A stretch of 64,000 nt of DNA from Chlamydiales bacterium (GCA_016185065.1 JACPOL010000003.1:113609-177608); one strand, 5' to 3'. Shown: positions 39,705-46,855, counted from the stretch's first letter. Notes: a model not told the origin generated them from the sequence alone. Numbers and translations are program-made.

Positions 39705-39917
39705 TCACTTTTGGGAGCTCTTTTGAGGCTCTTCCCAGGGGTACTTCTCTCGCTCGCGCATCTTGGGGCTTTCGACCTTAAACTGGTACTCGCTCTCATG
39801 GCGCTGGATGTACTCTCCCTTGGCGTTCTGCTTGCGCATCTTCTCATCTTCAGACTGCTCGAGGTTGGAGCAGCCGGCTGCAAGTAGGGGCAGAAGTAGT
39901 GCGGCTAGTCTTTTCAT
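39705..39917 (-). CDS. Small lipoprotein
   Basis: The ATG at 39917 gives MKRLAALLLPLLAAGCSN (lipobox LAAGC), followed by a charged 50-aa tail. Confidence 0.55.
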   Translation of the reverse strand: MKRLAALLLPLLAAGCSNLEQSEDEKMRKQNAKGEYIQRHESEYQFKVESPKMREREKYPWEEPQKSSQK

Positions 39918-39985
39918 TAAAATATATTTTATATAATTAAAGCCAAAATCGGTTATTAAGAGAATATACACAAAAATGGAGCGCC

Positions 39986-40975
39986 GTGTCTTTAGATAAA
40001 ATTGAAATACCCGCCTCGGGTCTCTCGAAAAAGAACCAGATCATCGCAGAGAGCATCGTAATGAAGAAGATCCTGAGCGATGTGGTTAAAATCGCACAGA
40101 GCTCCGCAAGCGTCTTCATCAGTGGAGAGTCGGGCACGGGCAAAGAGGTGATCGCAGAGGCGATCCACCTGATGTCTCCGAGGGCTTCTGCAGCTTTTAT
40201 CAAAGTCAACTGCGCGGCAGTTCCGGAAACACTGATCGAATCTGAGTTTTTTGGTCATGAGAAGGGCTCGTTCACTGGAGCAGTAAATCGGCGCATCGGC
40301 AGGTTCGAGCAAGCGGATAAAGGAACCCTGCTTCTGGATGAGATCTCAGAGGTTCCCCTCACGGTGCAAACGAAGCTTCTGCGGGCAGTGCAGGAGCAGG
40401 TGTTTGAGCGCGTGGGAGGCCCAAACCCGATACAGGTGGACGTCCGCTTAATCTCGACCTCGAATCGGAATATGAAAGAAGCTGTCGAGCAGAAGATCTT
40501 TCGAGAGGATCTCTACTACCGGCTCAATGTGGTGCCAATTCATCTTGCGCCTCTCAGAGAGCGAAAAGAGGATATCCTGCCTCTTGCGGAGCACTTTCTC
40601 GAGAGATTATGCGCTGAGAACCAGAAGCCTAGAAAGAGCTTAAGTCTGGCTGCAAAAAACAGGATGCTCAACTACCCGTGGCCTGGCAACATCCGCGAAC
40701 TTGCCAACATCATCGAAAGGCTGGTGGTCATGCACAGCACGGTAGAAATTTCCCCAAGCGATCTCTGCTTGGAAGAGCCGGGCCTCTGCTCGATCGGGCC
40801 GAGCTTGTATGCGGGCCCCCTCACTCTGGAAGAGCTAGAAAAACGCCACATTCTAGAAACGCTGGCTCTGCAAAATTATAATCGGACGCAGACGGCAAAG
40901 CTCCTGGGAATCAGCGTGAGAACGCTTAGGAACAAGCTCCATCACTATCAAGTGTCTGAAGTTGGCTCTCAATGA
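39986..40975 (+). CDS. Sigma-54-dependent transcriptional activator lacking a receiver domain (PspF-like architecture)
   Basis: 329 aa with a GTG start. Walker A GESGTGKE, GAFTGA-loop variant GSFTGA, DEISE Walker B, C-terminal Fis-type HTH (NRTQTAKLLGISVRTLRNKL). There is no room upstream for a receiver domain. Confidence 0.85.
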   Translation: MSLDKIEIPASGLSKKNQIIAESIVMKKILSDVVKIAQSSASVFISGESGTGKEVIAEAIHLMSPRASAAFIKVNCAAVPETLIESEFFGHEKGSFTGAVNRRIGRFEQADKGTLLLDEISEVPLTVQTKLLRAVQEQVFERVGGPNPIQVDVRLISTSNRNMKEAVEQKIFREDLYYRLNVVPIHLAPLRERKEDILPLAEHFLERLCAENQKPRKSLSLAAKNRMLNYPWPGNIRELANIIERLVVMHSTVEISPSDLCLEEPGLCSIGPSLYAGPLTLEELEKRHILETLALQNYNRTQTAKLLGISVRTLRNKLHHYQVSEVGSQ

Positions 40976-42722
40976 TCTCTTTGACGCGGTGCCACTTAAT
41001 TCTCTGCTGATCGACCTTATCTTTTTCCGACCGCCCCATGTAGCGCAGCAGGAGATGGTCGAGCGCAGGAACGGCAACTGCCATCAGCGCCTCATACGCA
41101 CTTTCACTCTGTAGGTCGTGCTCGAGCAGTGCCATCTTGGTGGTAGGAAGAGGGGTCTGGGCCGACTTAATCTCATACAGGATCTCTTCACAGAGTTCGA
41201 GGCATCTGCGCAAACTCAATCTGAGCTGCTCGTAGAGGGCAAAAATGCGTGGAGTTGAGATCTGCGTCATCTTCAAGTTCTGGATATCAGAGTGAATCCT
41301 ACCTCGAAGATCATGCGTCTGTTTCATCTTCTGCTCTGCGATCTCTTCAAGAGGAGTGTATTCAATGCCGGGAAAGCCGATGCCTCCTTCGGTTGCACTC
41401 AAAAACTCTCTCTCTGGATGAGCTTTAGCATAGGCGCCAATGCACTCCGACTCCATGACCCACTTCACCATGGTATCTACAGGATTGCCGAGGCGGTCCT
41501 TGCGATGGAGCAGCCTATCTGTCGAGCGCTTATCTTTTTTCAGCTGGCCTTTATCGATTGCATTCTGTGCGACTACGCCATCGGCATAGCGCTGCTTGCC
41601 AGTATAGGCGAGGTCGACGCCAGCGAGGATGATCGGAGTGCAGCCAAGGGTATAGGCGTATGCAATTGCAAGTGTTGTCACTGAAAAGGCCTCTCTTCCA
41701 AGATCGGGTCCGATCGCTTCTCCATCTATCGAAAGGCGCTCTTCGATCCAGCTTTCAAAGAGGCCGCCAGTATCAGATTTGAGGTAGCCAATGGGGCCGT
41801 TGCATGTAGAGAAAACATCTGGCTGCAATCTACTGCCAAAAAGGAGTGGAACTTCAAAAGCGGCGCTAGCTTTCAACCTTTCATACTCTTCGGGATTCGG
41901 ATCTAAAGCCATGGCAAGATGCGGCACAACTCCTTGATTACTCAGCGCTGCAATGGCAGATCCACCTGCGATGATAAGCGCCCGGTTTTCAAGTGTTTTA
42001 AGTGTTCCGATCACAGATTTCAAAGAGGGGCCTGCACCGCAGATGATCGCAGGCACGCCCTGGTAGCGACCTTCCAGTTCATTTGCATAGAAAGCGGAAG
42101 GCAGACGCTTCAAGTTGGGAGCTAGATTCTGCAAGAGCTTATGCGAAAAGAGGGCCTCTGAGAAGAGCGCGTGGAATGAGGAGCTGCTGCGGAGGAGCTG
42201 AAGACGGATGCGCGAGATCTTCGCTCTGCTCTTTTTTGCGTAGGCAGGAAGCGCAGTTACTGCAACGTGCGCGCAAGGAAAGGTCTGTGCTAGATTGTCG
42301 AGATCTGCCTTCCAGCTGCGCACGAAGCGCAAAACTACCTGCGGATCTTCTGTGATCTCAGCGGCTGCTTCTGCCTGAAAGAAGGCAGCAATCGCACCGA
42401 GGTCATCTTCTAAAAAAACAACTCTCCGCTGAGGCAGCTTGTGCAGCCAGTTTTTTATTTCCGCATAGCAGTAGCCTAAGCCCACGCCATAAACATAGAG
42501 GATCTCAATGTCATCTAGATCAAGTGATGCAGCCCAGAGCTTCACCTCTTCATCGATGTCAGAAATAGAGTGCAGAAACTCCTCTGTCTTTCCTTTTTTC
42601 CGCACGGCGTTCACTTTGCCATCTGCACTACTTGTCATCTCATAGGCGGAGTAGTCGGTGTAAGAGAGAAAAAAATAGATGTCGGGATATTTTTCTAGTA
42701 GGGCTTCTCGCTCTTTTAGCAC
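40926..42722 (-). CDS. DUF115 (Maf / MptE-like) family protein, copy B
   Basis: 598 aa. GVPAIICGAGPSLKSVIGTLKTLENRALIIAGGSAIAAL...MALDPNP is the DUF115 signature. Its 3' end overlaps the convergent activator gene by 50 nt. Confidence 0.55.
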   Translation of the reverse strand: MLKEREALLEKYPDIYFFLSYTDYSAYEMTSSADGKVNAVRKKGKTEEFLHSISDIDEEVKLWAASLDLDDIEILYVYGVGLGYCYAEIKNWLHKLPQRRVVFLEDDLGAIAAFFQAEAAAEITEDPQVVLRFVRSWKADLDNLAQTFPCAHVAVTALPAYAKKSRAKISRIRLQLLRSSSSFHALFSEALFSHKLLQNLAPNLKRLPSAFYANELEGRYQGVPAIICGAGPSLKSVIGTLKTLENRALIIAGGSAIAALSNQGVVPHLAMALDPNPEEYERLKASAAFEVPLLFGSRLQPDVFSTCNGPIGYLKSDTGGLFESWIEERLSIDGEAIGPDLGREAFSVTTLAIAYAYTLGCTPIILAGVDLAYTGKQRYADGVVAQNAIDKGQLKKDKRSTDRLLHRKDRLGNPVDTMVKWVMESECIGAYAKAHPEREFLSATEGGIGFPGIEYTPLEEIAEQKMKQTHDLRGRIHSDIQNLKMTQISTPRIFALYEQLRLSLRRCLELCEEILYEIKSAQTPLPTTKMALLEHDLQSESAYEALMAVAVPALDHLLLRYMGRSEKDKVDQQRIKWHRVKEIIESQLQTLDSDGACS

Positions 42723-43231
42723 AGCGCGCCCTCCTGAATTAAGACTCCCTTCGGATTCCAGATGCGGTCTGTTCCCTCTCTTTTGCCATGCGCATAGTAG
42801 GTGTGGCGTTTGAGCTTTCCGTCGGGGTAATAGAGCAGAAGCTCTCCATGAAGATGGCCGCTGTCGTAGAAGATCAGACTCTTGATCTTTCCATCTTCGT
42901 AGTAGTACTCCTGTTTGCCAGTGAGGAGCCCATCTTTATAACGCTGCACCGAGCTTAAACTTCCAGAGGTGTAGTACTGCCACATCTTCCCCTGACGCAC
43001 CCCCTTGATATACCAGCTGCGCGAAAGAACCACTCCTGTTTTGCTGTAGAAGATAGATGGACCATGCAAGAGCTCTCCATCGTAGTAGCAGCAGCTTTCG
43101 ATCTTCTTGTCGGGATAGTGGGTGTAGCGCGCACCCTTCTCAGAATCAAAGGCGCACTCTAGATGAAGGCCAAGCTCTTCATCGATTAGAGTGAGGCGCC
43201 CATTTTCAGTCTCATATCTCTCTTTGTGCAT
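42716..43231 (-). CDS. MORN-variant repeat protein (YwqK-like)
   Basis: 171 aa of repeated G.L.G....YY.DG units (for example YYDGELLHGPSIFY, YYEDGKIKSLIFYDSGHLHGELLLYYPDGKLK). Confidence 0.6.
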   Translation of the reverse strand: MHKERYETENGRLTLIDEELGLHLECAFDSEKGARYTHYPDKKIESCCYYDGELLHGPSIFYSKTGVVLSRSWYIKGVRQGKMWQYYTSGSLSSVQRYKDGLLTGKQEYYYEDGKIKSLIFYDSGHLHGELLLYYPDGKLKRHTYYAHGKREGTDRIWNPKGVLIQEGALC

Positions 43232-44675
43232 TGCAGGTTCTCTTAATAAATATTAGTTTATGCAAGTAGGGGGAGGCGTCTGCATCGCGAGTAAAAAGAG
43301 GCTGCCAGATCCGCCAGAGAGGCTCAAAAAACATCTGGTATGCAACCTCCTCTTCTAGCTCAACCTCTAGCAGAGCTCCCTCTCCTCTTTCGCTGGGAAG
43401 ATTAGGATAGATCTTTTCGCATAAGGTGAGCAAGTCATCTACAATTTTTTCACACTTTAAAAAACTCTCTTTCACTGCCAGGCTCACCGCCTGAGGATCT
43501 CTTTCGCACGCAGGCGGCAGCTGCGCAACCTTCGCATGCACAAGAGCTTCTACATCGACCATCTTCTGGCCATGCGTTTTAAGTAGCTCCTCAAGCGAGC
43601 TTCTCTCAACTCCTTTCAGCTCAAGCCCGCCTCTCGTTGCATTCACAATCCGCAGATCTTTGTGCGCCTCTGCAAACTGCTGAATCCAGCTCGCTGCCAT
43701 CTGCCAGTCGCGCTTTGTATACACCCTTCTGCCATCTACATCTTCAGCTTCGATGAACTGGCTGCCCACTTTCTCATCGACTCCTGCCCCGTAGACCCTC
43801 TCAGAATCTGTCGAGAGCTCAACTCCCACAAGAATAATCGGGCTGCAGCCAAGAGCTCGTGCAAGAGCAAGGGAGAAGGTCGATACATTCCACCCTCCAT
43901 CGAAGGGGGGCTCATCTATCTCCACCTGCGCATTCATCCAGGATTCGATCGGGTAGTTTCCGCTGTCTGGCATCCAGAGGCGGGGCCCATGCGCCTGCGC
44001 AAGAAGCTCTTGAGACACCCTGTTCTGGTAGAAAAGGGGAGCTTCGATCGCATGCTGCTGCAAGAAGCGCTCCAGCGGTGGATCTGGATCGATACAAGCA
44101 GTGAGGTCTGGAAGCAGGTTAAACGAGGAGAGAACGTTGAGCGAGGAGCCGCCGGCGAAGATCACCCCGCGCCCCTTCCACTTGCGCAGCTGCTCTATCT
44201 CTCTTCCCAGCGAGGGGCCCGCACCGCAGATGATCGCAGGCACTCCCTTAAACTCCCCAAACAGGCCGCTTGCGCGCTTTGCCTTTCCAAGCTCAGAAAA
44301 GTTCTCGAGATAGTTGGAGAGGACCCTCTTTCCCATGTCCTTAAAATCTGAAGCGATGAGGTTGACCTCTTCCCTGCATCTCTCAATCCGCGCAAAAGCC
44401 TCTTTCGCCTCATCCCTTTCAGCTTCATGATAGGAGAAGCGCAAGAAGAGAAACTCCTGGAGCTGCTGTTTTAAAAGCTCCTCGTCTGCATCGAGAGAGA
44501 GAAAGCGAACTTTAGGATGGCTGGCTGCAAGAAATTGAGAGAGAAGATCTCCCCGATTTAGAAAAAGAAGATACCTCTCCTCTTTCTCTTCCAACCACGA
44601 AGAGAAGAGCTGCACGCACGGGTGCATCTCTGCATCAAAAAAGCAGAGGACGTCTGTCTCTTTATACTCTTCCAT
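43212..44675 (-). CDS. DUF115 (Maf / MptE-like) family protein, copy A
   Basis: 487 aa. GVPAIICGAGPSLGREIEQLRKWKGRGVIFAGGSSLNVL...ACIDPDP. Paralog of 40926-42722. Confidence 0.55.
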   Translation of the reverse strand: MEEYKETDVLCFFDAEMHPCVQLFSSWLEEKEERYLLFLNRGDLLSQFLAASHPKVRFLSLDADEELLKQQLQEFLFLRFSYHEAERDEAKEAFARIERCREEVNLIASDFKDMGKRVLSNYLENFSELGKAKRASGLFGEFKGVPAIICGAGPSLGREIEQLRKWKGRGVIFAGGSSLNVLSSFNLLPDLTACIDPDPPLERFLQQHAIEAPLFYQNRVSQELLAQAHGPRLWMPDSGNYPIESWMNAQVEIDEPPFDGGWNVSTFSLALARALGCSPIILVGVELSTDSERVYGAGVDEKVGSQFIEAEDVDGRRVYTKRDWQMAASWIQQFAEAHKDLRIVNATRGGLELKGVERSSLEELLKTHGQKMVDVEALVHAKVAQLPPACERDPQAVSLAVKESFLKCEKIVDDLLTLCEKIYPNLPSERGEGALLEVELEEEVAYQMFFEPLWRIWQPLFTRDADASPYLHKLIFIKRTCNAQREI

Positions 44676-45159
44676 TCTTTATCGCGTTTATAAGTTCTTG
44701 ATAGGGAGGAAGTGAGGATGCAAAAGCATAAGTTCCGCTCTTCCGATCTGGATAGCCAAATAGGAGCTCATCTTTTGCTGCCATGGAGATGAAGTAGGCT
44801 CCCACATAGCTATTGTATCCGAGAAGCTGCTCTTTTGCATCGAAGCCAAGCCCCTCTTTTTTACACTCGATGAGAAGCAGGGGATATAAGGCGTGGTCGG
44901 GGTGGATTCCTCTACCGAAACAGAGAATATCAACCCTGCGATCTGGAACTTTTACACCCTGTAGATGAGGAAGTAGACCGATCTCTCTTTCGATTGCAAG
45001 AAGCTCTTTTGGATAACCTAGAAGGCCGACCATTTGATGCAGCAGAGTCTGACGGACGATCTCCTCTTCCGTTGCAGCAACCCAAATTCCACGAAGCTCG
45101 TCGAAGATCTTCTGCTTTGGTTTTCTACTCTGGCTGGATAACGCCATAGTTGCCATCAC
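44662..45159 (-). CDS. HsdR-N-terminal-like PD-(D/E)xK domain protein
   Basis: 165 aa. RRVDILCFGR...LLLIECKKEGL fits the D...(E)xK restriction-endonuclease-like core of HSDR_N_2 proteins. It overlaps the hpf 3' end. Confidence 0.5.
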   Translation of the reverse strand: MMATMALSSQSRKPKQKIFDELRGIWVAATEEEIVRQTLLHQMVGLLGYPKELLAIEREIGLLPHLQGVKVPDRRVDILCFGRGIHPDHALYPLLLIECKKEGLGFDAKEQLLGYNSYVGAYFISMAAKDELLFGYPDRKSGTYAFASSLPPYQELINAIKNGRV

Positions 45160-45751
45160 TGCGGCGATACATCACTTTGAGTTTCTGATCTTCCTCTCCG
45201 CGGAAGACGAGGAAGTGGTCTCCAGAGAGATCCATCTTCATCACAGCCTCTTCCATATTGAGAGTCTTTAGACGCAGCTTCTCGGTGCCGATCACACTTG
45301 GAAGCTTATACTGCTCATTTTTTTTGTTTTCGAACTCGATTTCAGAGTTGATCTCTTCAATCAGGTCGTAGGGACGATTTAGCACGTTGACAAGAACATC
45401 TGTCGCAGTGAGCTTCTTCGCATTGTGATCTTGAATGCGCCCCTTCCATCTGCGGATCTTATGCTGCAAACGGCGGACTGCAGTGTCGATAGAAGCATAG
45501 ATGTCGGTACTATCGGCAGAGACTTTAATTTTAAAATGCTCGAACTTAGCGACGATAGTCACCACGTGTTCAAGGCGCTGGATCTCCATGTAGACGTGGA
45601 TATCCATGATGTGCGTGTGGAGCTTATCGATCTTCTTCAGCTTATCGCTCAGGTAGTTCTTCATGGCCTCGGTAACATGAATGCCCTTGCCATAGACATT
45701 GAGCTTATATCCCGCAGCATCTTCTTCTTTGAACTTGTTCTTGTCGACCAT
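45125..45751 (-). CDS. hpf: Ribosome hibernation promoting factor, long form (sigma-54 modulation protein/S30EA family)
   Basis: 208 aa. YKLNVYGKGIHVTEAMKNYLSDKLKKIDK N-domain plus a C-terminal dimerisation domain (FLVFRGEEDQKLKVMYRRSDGNYGVIQP). Confidence 0.85.
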   Translation of the reverse strand: MVDKNKFKEEDAAGYKLNVYGKGIHVTEAMKNYLSDKLKKIDKLHTHIMDIHVYMEIQRLEHVVTIVAKFEHFKIKVSADSTDIYASIDTAVRRLQHKIRRWKGRIQDHNAKKLTATDVLVNVLNRPYDLIEEINSEIEFENKKNEQYKLPSVIGTEKLRLKTLNMEEAVMKMDLSGDHFLVFRGEEDQKLKVMYRRSDGNYGVIQPE

Positions 45752-45796: not shown

Positions 45797-46855
45797 TTAG
45801 CTCGAAGTTTTGCAAAGGATTTTCTGCCTTTTACCAAGTTGCCCGCAGGCAGCCATGATCCCCCGCCCTTTTGGATGGCGCACCAGAGTCTGATAACCCA
45901 TCTCCCTTATTTTCGCAGCAAAGGCGTCCATCTCCGCCTCGTCCGGCGGCGCAAAAACGCCCCTGCTCTGCGCATTGTAGGCGATGAGATTCACCCGTAC
46001 CCGCAGCCCCTCCAAATAGCGCCCCAGCTCCTCTGCCGCTGCAACCGAATCGTTGATCCCCTTGATCAGCACATACTCAGCAAAGATCTGCCGCCTCGGA
46101 TTCTCGCAGTAGCGCATCAGCACCTCTTTCAGAGCCGCCATATCCCAGCGCTTATTCACCGGCATCAGCCTCGAGCGCACACTATCGTTCGGCGCATTCA
46201 CCGACACCGCAAGATTAACCGCAGGATCGATCTCATTTGTGAAACGCACGAGTCCATCCAGCACCCCGCTCGTCGAGACCGTGATCCTCGATGGCCCAAA
46301 GCCCATCCCACAGGGATCTGTCAGCACCGCAATCGCCTGCTTGACGCAGTCGAAGTTGTCCAGAGGCTCACCCATTCCCATGAAGACGATGTTGCGCACC
46401 GGACGCTTAAACACCCGCATTGCAATAAAAACTTGAGAGACGATCTCCTCCACAGAAAGCGAGCGAAGAAGACCCATCTTTCCCGTTTCGCAGAAGGCGC
46501 ACCCCATCTTGCACCCCACCTGAGAAGAGATGCAGAGCGTGATTCCCGACTGCATCGGAATGAGCACCGACTCGCTCTCCCTTCCATCTCCATAACGCAG
46601 AAGATACTTTACCGTGTCCCCCTCTTCGCGCAGAAGAGAGACCTCCGGCAGAGAGAAGTCGGTAAAAGAGATCATCTCGCGCACCAGCCCCCTCGCCTGC
46701 GACTCTATCCAGGGAGCCTCGTCAGAGACCTCCCCTTTAGTAAACCAGTCGCGGTAGAGCCCGCACGCGTGGTGCTCTCCTTTTCCCAGCAGCGCTAGCA
46801 CAGCCGCGGAAAAACTTCTTTGAGTGTGGCAAAAAATCGGAAGTTTAGAAACCAT
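45797..46855 (-). CDS. rlmN: 23S rRNA/tRNA (adenine-C2)-methyltransferase, radical SAM
   Basis: 352 aa. SSQVGCKMGCAFCETGKMG (CxxxCxxC) and MGMGEPLDN. Confidence 0.9.
   Translation of the reverse strand: MVSKLPIFCHTQRSFSAAVLALLGKGEHHACGLYRDWFTKGEVSDEAPWIESQARGLVREMISFTDFSLPEVSLLREEGDTVKYLLRYGDGRESESVLIPMQSGITLCISSQVGCKMGCAFCETGKMGLLRSLSVEEIVSQVFIAMRVFKRPVRNIVFMGMGEPLDNFDCVKQAIAVLTDPCGMGFGPSRITVSTSGVLDGLVRFTNEIDPAVNLAVSVNAPNDSVRSRLMPVNKRWDMAALKEVLMRYCENPRRQIFAEYVLIKGINDSVAAAEELGRYLEGLRVRVNLIAYNAQSRGVFAPPDEAEMDAFAAKIREMGYQTLVRHPKGRGIMAACGQLGKRQKILCKTSS

Follow-up and report, generated by a model that had tools for sequence, protein, structure and literature searches.

A probable mosaic of separable parts on an ancient chlamydial backbone: translation genes, a putative Maf-MORN glycosylation module and a receiver-less CtcC ortholog

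In this study, we focus on the interval from 39,986 to 45,751 of a 64,000-nucleotide stretch of DNA from a Chlamydiales bacterium (GCA_016185065.1 JACPOL010000003.1:113609-177608; this whole stretch is termed the window below), in which five overlapping genes, encoding a ribosome hibernation factor (hpf), an HsdR_N-like protein, two DUF115 proteins (DUF115a and DUF115b) and a MORN-repeat protein, converge on the gene of a sigma-54 enhancer-binding protein (EBP). We read this region as a mosaic, in which separable parts, namely the translation genes, a Maf-MORN glycosylation module and a receiver-less CtcC, are set on an ancient chlamydial backbone (recO, rlmN-hpf-HsdR_N ... ctcC), and we give this reading a probability of about 0.55. 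The genome that carries the window (G000) is that of an environmental chlamydia; it is 1.87 Mb long and 98.6% complete, and its family, going by the NCBI names on homologs, is the Rhabdochlamydiaceae. The genes concerned, together with rlmN, are the following.

45797..46855, minus strand: rlmN, radical-SAM rRNA/tRNA methyltransferase (TIGR00048 9.6e-81; PF04055)
45125..45751, minus strand: hpf, long-form ribosome hibernation-promoting factor (PF02482 6e-16 and PF16321 3e-18; TIGR00741 65.8 bits, cut-off 40.9)
44662..45159, minus strand: HsdR_N-like stand-alone PD-(D/E)xK protein, 161-165 amino acids (PF13588 1e-11)
43212..44675, minus strand: DUF115a, Maf-like putative glycosyltransferase paralog, 487 amino acids (PF01973 1.1e-32)
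42716..43231, minus strand: MORN_2 repeat protein, 171 amino acids (PF07661 4.9e-15)
40926..42722, minus strand: DUF115b, Maf-like putative glycosyltransferase paralog, 598 amino acids, GTG start (PF01973 1.4e-35)
39986..40975, plus strand: EBP, sigma-54 enhancer-binding protein, AAA+ plus helix-turn-helix (HTH) domain (PF00158 3.4e-68, AAA lid, HTH_8)

A first-pass annotation of this DNA had described five minus-strand genes overlapping by 7-35 nt and a convergent activator gene, and the six open reading frames (ORFs) were indeed found where it had placed them. Its domain assignments hold for all six genes, each being backed by Pfam matches above the curated cut-offs, including PF01973 for the DUF115 pair (113.6 and 123 bits, gathering cut-off 34.6). 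The long form of hpf is recognized by its S30AE N-terminal domain and its C-terminal dimerization domain (PF02482, PF16321, TIGR00741), and both DUF115 paralogs carry the shared core that had been noticed, that is GVPAIICGAGPSL and the D-P-(D/N)-P motif. The overlaps are of 35 nt between hpf and the HsdR_N-like gene (23 nt if the latter starts at the ATG at 45147, as in the database gene call), 14 nt between the HsdR_N-like gene and DUF115a, 20 nt between DUF115a and the MORN gene, 7 nt between the MORN gene and DUF115b, and 50 nt between the convergent 3' ends of DUF115b and the EBP gene. The GTG start of DUF115b is preceded, 8 nt before, by AGGAGG. On the same strand, rlmN lies upstream of hpf with a gap of 45 nt; it is part of the conserved backbone and possibly shares a transcript with hpf. 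This operon-like packing recurs in relatives and is suggestive of co-transcription.

The order rlmN-hpf-HsdR_N-DUF115a-MORN-DUF115b with the convergent EBP gene is found again, with similar overlaps, in about 20 relatives from several families, which settles favorably the conservation across Chlamydiae that had been set as a check, and the adjacency of rlmN and hpf is seen in most relatives. Such a recurrent order and such tight packing are far beyond chance. The flanking unrelated genes (rlmN, recO and a 268-amino acid ORF) are equally syntenic, so the order alone is no proof of a shared function. The distribution of the parts among 300 Chlamydiota genomes is more informative. PF01973 is present in 242 of the 300, with 61/61 in the window family, 47/47 in family f5, 31/32 in f22 and 26/26 in f23; neither f20 (0/29) nor f15 (0/5) gave a match, and f19 gave a single weak one (1/18). 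HsdR_N, in contrast, is found in 295/300 genomes and in 29/29 of those of f20, and hpf stands beside HsdR_N in DUF115-less lineages too, the Chlamydiaceae-like f20 included. The DUF115-less lineages f19, f20, f8 and f15 retain the backbone unbroken and cleanly lack the Maf block. In f19, the convergent EBP gene directly borders hpf-HsdR_N, and the order in f20 is EBP-hpf-HsdR_N-recO. These differing distributions, and the backbones without a Maf block, lead us to consider hpf/HsdR_N and Maf/MORN as functionally separable. That Chlamydiaceae-like genomes have lost the module would also set pathogenic chlamydiae apart from environmental ones.

It is on these grounds that we depart from the proposal of the first-pass annotation, in which the five genes, together with the activator, would make up a single module for stationary phase or development under sigma-54 control, uniting hibernation, a nuclease fold and DUF115. 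Tight overlaps and an order conserved across families are what such a module would predict, the ctcC-hpf-HsdR_N neighborhood is ancient and found even in Chlamydiaceae-like genomes, and the sigma-54 regulon of Chlamydia trachomatis is late developmental (PMC7482065). However, synteny extends just as well to unrelated flanking genes, the phyletic patterns of the two sets of genes differ, the Maf block is missing from the same backbone elsewhere, and further Maf-MORN pairs exist away from hpf. In addition, a genome-wide weighted scan for the sigma-54 signature (GG-N10-GC), another check that had been set, returned nothing for the gaps that lie upstream of hpf and of rlmN, so that no conserved -24/-12 element precedes the cluster. 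Numbers of sigma-70 promoters and terminators were not above those of shuffled controls. Altogether, we hold the single module to be very unlikely.

The assignment of the DUF115 pair is the part of the mosaic on which the most can be said. AlphaFold models built from homolog alignments were of high confidence (AlphaFold2; mean predicted local distance difference test, pLDDT, of 94.9 for DUF115a and 96.6 for DUF115b, with a predicted template modeling score, pTM, of 0.93 for the latter), and when they were compared by Foldseek, the top fold match was for both the Maf protein of Magnetospirillum, 5MU5 (E 9.8e-17 over 540 columns for DUF115a and E 2.8e-20 over 670 columns for DUF115b), with a template modeling (TM) score of about 0.5. 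The single sequence of DUF115b already finds 5MU5 at 7.7e-5. The complete three-domain plan of Maf is present in both proteins, with an N-terminal degenerate Rossmann domain, a central domain and a C-terminal helical domain. As far as the fold is concerned, DUF115a and DUF115b are thus full three-domain Maf-type proteins and not MptE-type ones, and they are predicted to act as glycosyltransferases; a relationship to the Maf/MptE domain had been suggested, and the structural comparison with both places the pair on the Maf side. In Maf, E324 and D415 are reported to be essential for activity (bioRxiv 10.1101/2020.06.03.131540), and in a HMMER alignment they correspond to D274 and D370 in DUF115b and to D196 and E286 in DUF115a. 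D274 is invariant and D370 at least 90% conserved among 101 DUF115b sequences, and D196 is invariant among 80 DUF115a orthologs. The nucleotide loop GAGPS (residues 151-155 in DUF115a and 229-233 in DUF115b) is nearly invariant in the same 101 and 80 orthologs. With these conserved acidic residues and this loop, both paralogs look catalytically competent, as judged from their sequences.

The pair can therefore be set against the known Maf enzymes (Magnetospirillum magneticum 5MU5, Clostridium botulinum and Geobacillus Maf, Campylobacter/Helicobacter PseD/PseE). Like them, it has three domains around a central sialyltransferase-like PF01973 domain, a GxGPS nucleotide loop and the two activity-essential acidic residues; Maf enzymes are cytoplasmic, as the pair would be, and the Maf-MORN unit of flagellated chlamydiae adjoins flagellin and NeuB genes. 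Unlike them, it belongs to a genome and a family without flagellin or nonulosonic-acid synthase, it sits behind hpf/HsdR_N, and it consists of two fixed paralogs with a dedicated MORN-repeat partner, sometimes fused, an arrangement not described for Maf. In our literature search, chlamydiae did not appear together with DUF115 or with "motility associated factor" in any paper, and nothing of use came up on chlamydial hpf.

This partnership is documented in several relatives. Natural fusions of DUF115 and MORN_2 exist among the homologs (P0231 and P0235). DUF115 ORFs reach 828 amino acids in genome G039, where a MORN segment lies inside the ORF, and 926 amino acids in G036. In G030, the DUF115 family has grown to nine copies, and on four different contigs a DUF115 gene is immediately followed by a MORN gene that overlaps it; DUF115-MORN pairs are also found in G133 and G041. 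These fusions and repeated pairs identify the MORN protein as a dedicated partner of the Maf-like enzymes. It resembles the N-terminal MORN-like sheet of SET7/9 (7e-6), and, whether encoded behind the enzymes or fused to them, it may serve as their targeting or acceptor-binding subunit.

The genomic context raises the question of what these enzymes modify. The first-pass annotation had noted that flagellin and sialic-acid genes are missing from the window, and this extends to the whole genome: no PF00669 (flagellin) match was found in the window genome, nor in any of the 61 genomes of the family, and no PF03102 candidate for a NeuB-type synthase was found in the window genome or its genus, the PF03102 matches elsewhere in the family being weak and partial. 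In the phylum, flagellin is above cut-off in 6 of the 300 genomes. Genuine NeuB (E below 1e-60) is a feature of many families with large genomes, being present in 30/32 genomes of f22 and in all sampled genomes of f25, f26, f28, f3 and f32, and the window family, f5, f23 and f37 have none or weak partial matches. As a separate observation, ORFs of about 340 amino acids in several f1, f5 and f23 genomes match only positions 53-238 of the NeuB model with E values of 1e-8 to 1e-13 (e.g., G124:C3:432715-433296); they may form a divergent NeuB-like family, of which no member occurs in the window genome.

The few flagellated lineages carry the same unit in a flagellar setting. One of the MORN-DUF115 pairs of G030 has a flagellin gene as its neighbor (L125:120-914); next to another stand the genes of a methyltransferase, a DegT aminotransferase and a NeuB+SAF synthase (L126:1957-4647). 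On the hpf backbone of G133, HsdR_N and DUF115b-MORN are separated by a FliM gene (L152:12155-13111), and about 4 kb beyond recO there is a flagellin-like gene (L152:3664-4401). The phylum also contains flagella without Maf, as genome G027 (f4) has eight flagellin-family matches and no DUF115 match.

Since two intact Maf proteins and their MORN partner persist in a genome without flagellin and nonulosonic-acid synthase, they probably glycosylate another target, and a glycosylation system directed at something other than flagellin is still, of what the first-pass annotation had envisaged, the best reading. We would thus propose that the Maf-MORN module is ancestral to Chlamydiota and lies next to genes for flagellin, FliM and nonulosonic acids in those few lineages that have flagella, and that in the non-flagellated window genome it would act on a different acceptor. 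The central sialyltransferase-like domain of the Maf-type enzyme would bind an ulosonic acid activated by cytidine monophosphate (CMP), the conserved Asp/Glu pair would serve to transfer this sugar onto Ser/Thr of an acceptor protein in the cytoplasm, and the MORN protein would target or bind that acceptor. In parallel, rlmN and the long-form hpf would be coupled to the pan-chlamydial PD-(D/E)xK protein, and CtcC, lacking its receiver, would probably be active without phosphorylation. The simplest history would be that an ancestral system for glycosylating flagellin with nonulosonate was kept after the loss of flagella and of the sugar pathway; the way from flagellar glycosylation to a new use could then be read from the flagellated lineages. 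The Maf pair is found in about 80% of the sampled chlamydial genomes, almost none of which are flagellated and most of which have no nonulosonic-acid synthase, which would point to an undescribed cytoplasmic protein glycosylation across this phylum of intracellular bacteria.

Regarding the sugar, the single CMP-sugar synthetase of the window genome (CTP_transf_3) scores above the equivalog cut-offs as KdsB, and the genome also has two genes of KdsA/DAHP type. Maf enzymes have been observed to transfer 3-deoxy-D-manno-octulosonate (Kdo) from CMP-Kdo to Ser/Thr in Escherichia coli (PMC11339370; bioRxiv 10.1101/2020.06.03.131540). In a genome with no NeuB-type synthase and with KdsB as its only CMP-sugar synthetase, CMP-Kdo supplied by KdsB is the most economical donor and the likeliest one to propose, even if we would put its chances in the window lineage somewhat short of even.

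Several points weigh against the mosaic reading and its glycosylation module. Chlamydial genomes are highly syntenic in general, which makes gene order weak functional evidence. The DUF115 pair does not reach the NCBIfam flagellin-modification model PseD (NF050051; 58.6 and 30.4 bits, cut-off 670), and the match of DUF115b to it is weak and covers the N-terminal half; scores so far under the cut-off make the pair distant relatives of Maf. The contigs of G030 that bear flagellin are short, and this genome has 3% contamination. So far, Maf has transferred Kdo only promiscuously, as a side reaction in a foreign expression host, and a host-derived or unrecognized sugar might instead be the donor. 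Finally, the neighborhoods searched for an acceptor yielded flagellin, in the flagellated lineages only, and no candidate for the window genome.

Among the other explanations for the DUF115 pair, one keeps CMP-Kdo as the sugar, the only CMP-ulosonate that the genome can make, and changes the acceptor: the enzymes would transfer Kdo to an acceptor of the lipid- or glycan-linked kind, for instance lipooligosaccharide, rather than to a protein. The resemblance of the central domain to glycan-acting sialyltransferases, with weak fold matches to ST3Gal/ST6GalNAc, goes in this direction, but the entire three-domain plan, including the helical C-terminal domain, is that of the protein-modifying Maf, the Maf-MORN unit lies beside flagellin in flagellated chlamydiae, no obvious membrane segments are present in the DUF115 proteins and a protein-binding MORN partner suits a protein target better; we find this quite improbable. 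In another, the automatic NCBI annotation ("6-hydroxymethylpterin diphosphokinase MptE-like") would make the two proteins pyrophosphokinases, or other ATP-dependent small-molecule enzymes. The archaeal 6-hydroxymethyl-7,8-dihydropterin pyrophosphokinase MptE does share with them the Pfam family, the central Rossmann-like fold and the GAGPS loop, and the MptE/HPPK structure 8SD5 is the second-best structural match, but the alignment is confined to some 190 central-domain residues, at E values of 1e-3 to 1e-5 against 1e-17 to 1e-20 over 540-670 columns for Maf. A profile of 101 DUF115b sequences likewise favors 5MU5 (2.6e-10) over archaeal MptE (2.3e-3), and MptE, with about 230 amino acids, has one domain only, whereas DUF115a and DUF115b, with 487 and 598 amino acids, have the additional N- and C-terminal domains of Maf and, in flagellated relatives, a linkage to flagellin and NeuB. 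This makes an MptE-type activity extremely unlikely. The same can be said of the idea that the pair survives from a flagellated ancestor as a relic without function: flagellin and NeuB have been lost and some relatives have stops within these genes, but both genes are intact here and present in all 61 sampled genomes of the family, their catalytic positions and nucleotide loop vary little or not at all across 80-101 orthologs, and 3.8 kb of useless coding sequence is rarely kept in reduced genomes of 1.2-2 Mb.

A bolder version of the glycosylation reading can be formulated, in which Maf-MORN is the remnant of a flagellin-glycosylation system, repurposed to attach Kdo to Ser/Thr of a non-flagellar protein, for example substrates of type III secretion. 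The type III secretion system is a relative of the flagellar export system, and its expression in Chlamydia is under sigma-54/CtcC control. To our knowledge, Maf enzymes are known only as flagellin modifiers, and the only Ser/Thr-O-Kdo linkages that we know of are artifacts of heterologous expression. We consider this version unlikely; if true, it would be the first native protein O-Kdo glycosylation, and the module gives a concrete place to look for such a linkage.

The third part of the mosaic is the activator. The EBP is the sole strong PF00158 match in the genome, and rpoN is on a different contig. It had been described as a PspF-like activator without a receiver, of which the architecture stands, with an AAA+ domain bearing GSFTGA, an HTH and no receiver, and the descent from PspF does not. 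PspF shares the same two-domain layout, but the EBP is under the cut-offs of the PspF models (TIGR02974, 285 against 443.6 bits; NF008622, 258 against 529 bits), no psp genes were noted nearby, and its receiver-less state is a derived one, with the receiver deleted from a response-regulator ancestor. Indeed, the ORFs of nearly all relatives have 430-480 amino acids, and the same-genus ortholog, of 451 amino acids, begins with MSLDKILVVLD and carries a Response_reg domain (PF00072 1.4e-15). The window EBP, in which Pfam detects no Response_reg domain, begins with MSLDKI and then runs straight into the linker before the AAA+ core: residues 7-131 (numbering of the same-genus protein) are absent, the deletion is in-frame and the first six codons are kept. 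Walker A (GESGTGK), the GSFTGA loop and Walker B (LLLDE) are intact. GSFTGA itself was considered as a defect, which was ruled out, as it is a common natural variant in relatives and is shared with six of them. On this sequence evidence, we take the EBP to be the positional ortholog of CtcC, whose receiver was lost by in-frame deletion.

An assembly artifact is unlikely, given the clean in-frame junction and the receiver-less orthologs that lie within intact contigs in G006 (L155:1134-2075) and G022 (L156:533-1498). With these two, the loss of the receiver is recurrent, in at least 3 genera. The sensor kinase was not lost along with it, as one intact HisKA kinase is present in the window genome, in G006 and in G022; the window genome also encodes two other receiver proteins. 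In f20, the EBP has 386 amino acids and combines a receiver (8.5e-28) with AAA+ and no HTH, which matches the published architecture of C. trachomatis CtcC, receiver and AAA+ without HTH (PMC7482065), and this match is why f20 is taken as the Chlamydiaceae. Like CtcC, the window EBP adjoins hpf-HsdR_N-recO and is the only EBP of its genome, and like the engineered, constitutively active construct it is without a receiver. It differs by keeping the Fis-type HTH that Chlamydiaceae CtcC is without, and by the fact that its receiver loss is natural, in-frame and recurrent in at least three genera of the family. The engineered ATPase-only CtcC of C. trachomatis does not need to be phosphorylated to hydrolyze ATP, and it turns the sigma-54 regulon on (PMC7482065); by analogy, the natural receiver-less EBP is probably active without its kinase. 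Such recurrent natural losses constitute a ready-made experiment on the control of sigma-54 activation in chlamydiae.

The HsdR_N-like protein is a phylum-wide core gene, single-copy in the genomes that carry it. Its PD-(D/E)xK motif is intact: E53, D73, E94-x-K96 and Q107 are invariant in 32 orthologs, as part of an equally invariant E...RRxD...ECK...Q...GYN pattern. A sequence search against the PDB gave no match. A type I restriction enzyme HsdR was ruled out, as it would be recognized by fused helicase/translocase domains and by adjacent hsdM/hsdS genes, and here the protein is a stand-alone one between hpf and DUF115a. Its role may be related to ribosomes or RNA. The gene always adjoins hpf, Chlamydiaceae-like genomes included (e.g., L140:9639-10223).

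Two further features lie on the other side of the EBP gene.

39705..39971, minus strand: gene of a small lipoprotein-like product (MKRLAALLLPLLAAGC...) that diverges from the EBP gene, start probably at 39917 (tblastn conservation)
39821..39836, plus strand: sigma-54-like -24/-12 match TGGCGTTCTGCTTGCG, 150 nt upstream of the EBP gene (genome-wide scan)

The second, a good match to the -24/-12 signature, was considered as a promoter of the EBP gene and rejected: it is absent at the equivalent place in 13 relatives and lies inside the lipoprotein ORF, and it is most likely a chance match. In G041, a ParA/MinD-like ATPase gene (L154:5336-6370) follows the EBP gene. The small lipoprotein-like gene has no Pfam match; it encodes 70-88 amino acids here, 105 in a same-genus relative and 266-286 in other genera, so it appears truncated in the window genus. 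It adjoins the EBP gene in 12 relatives (tblastn) and is thus a conserved neighbor.

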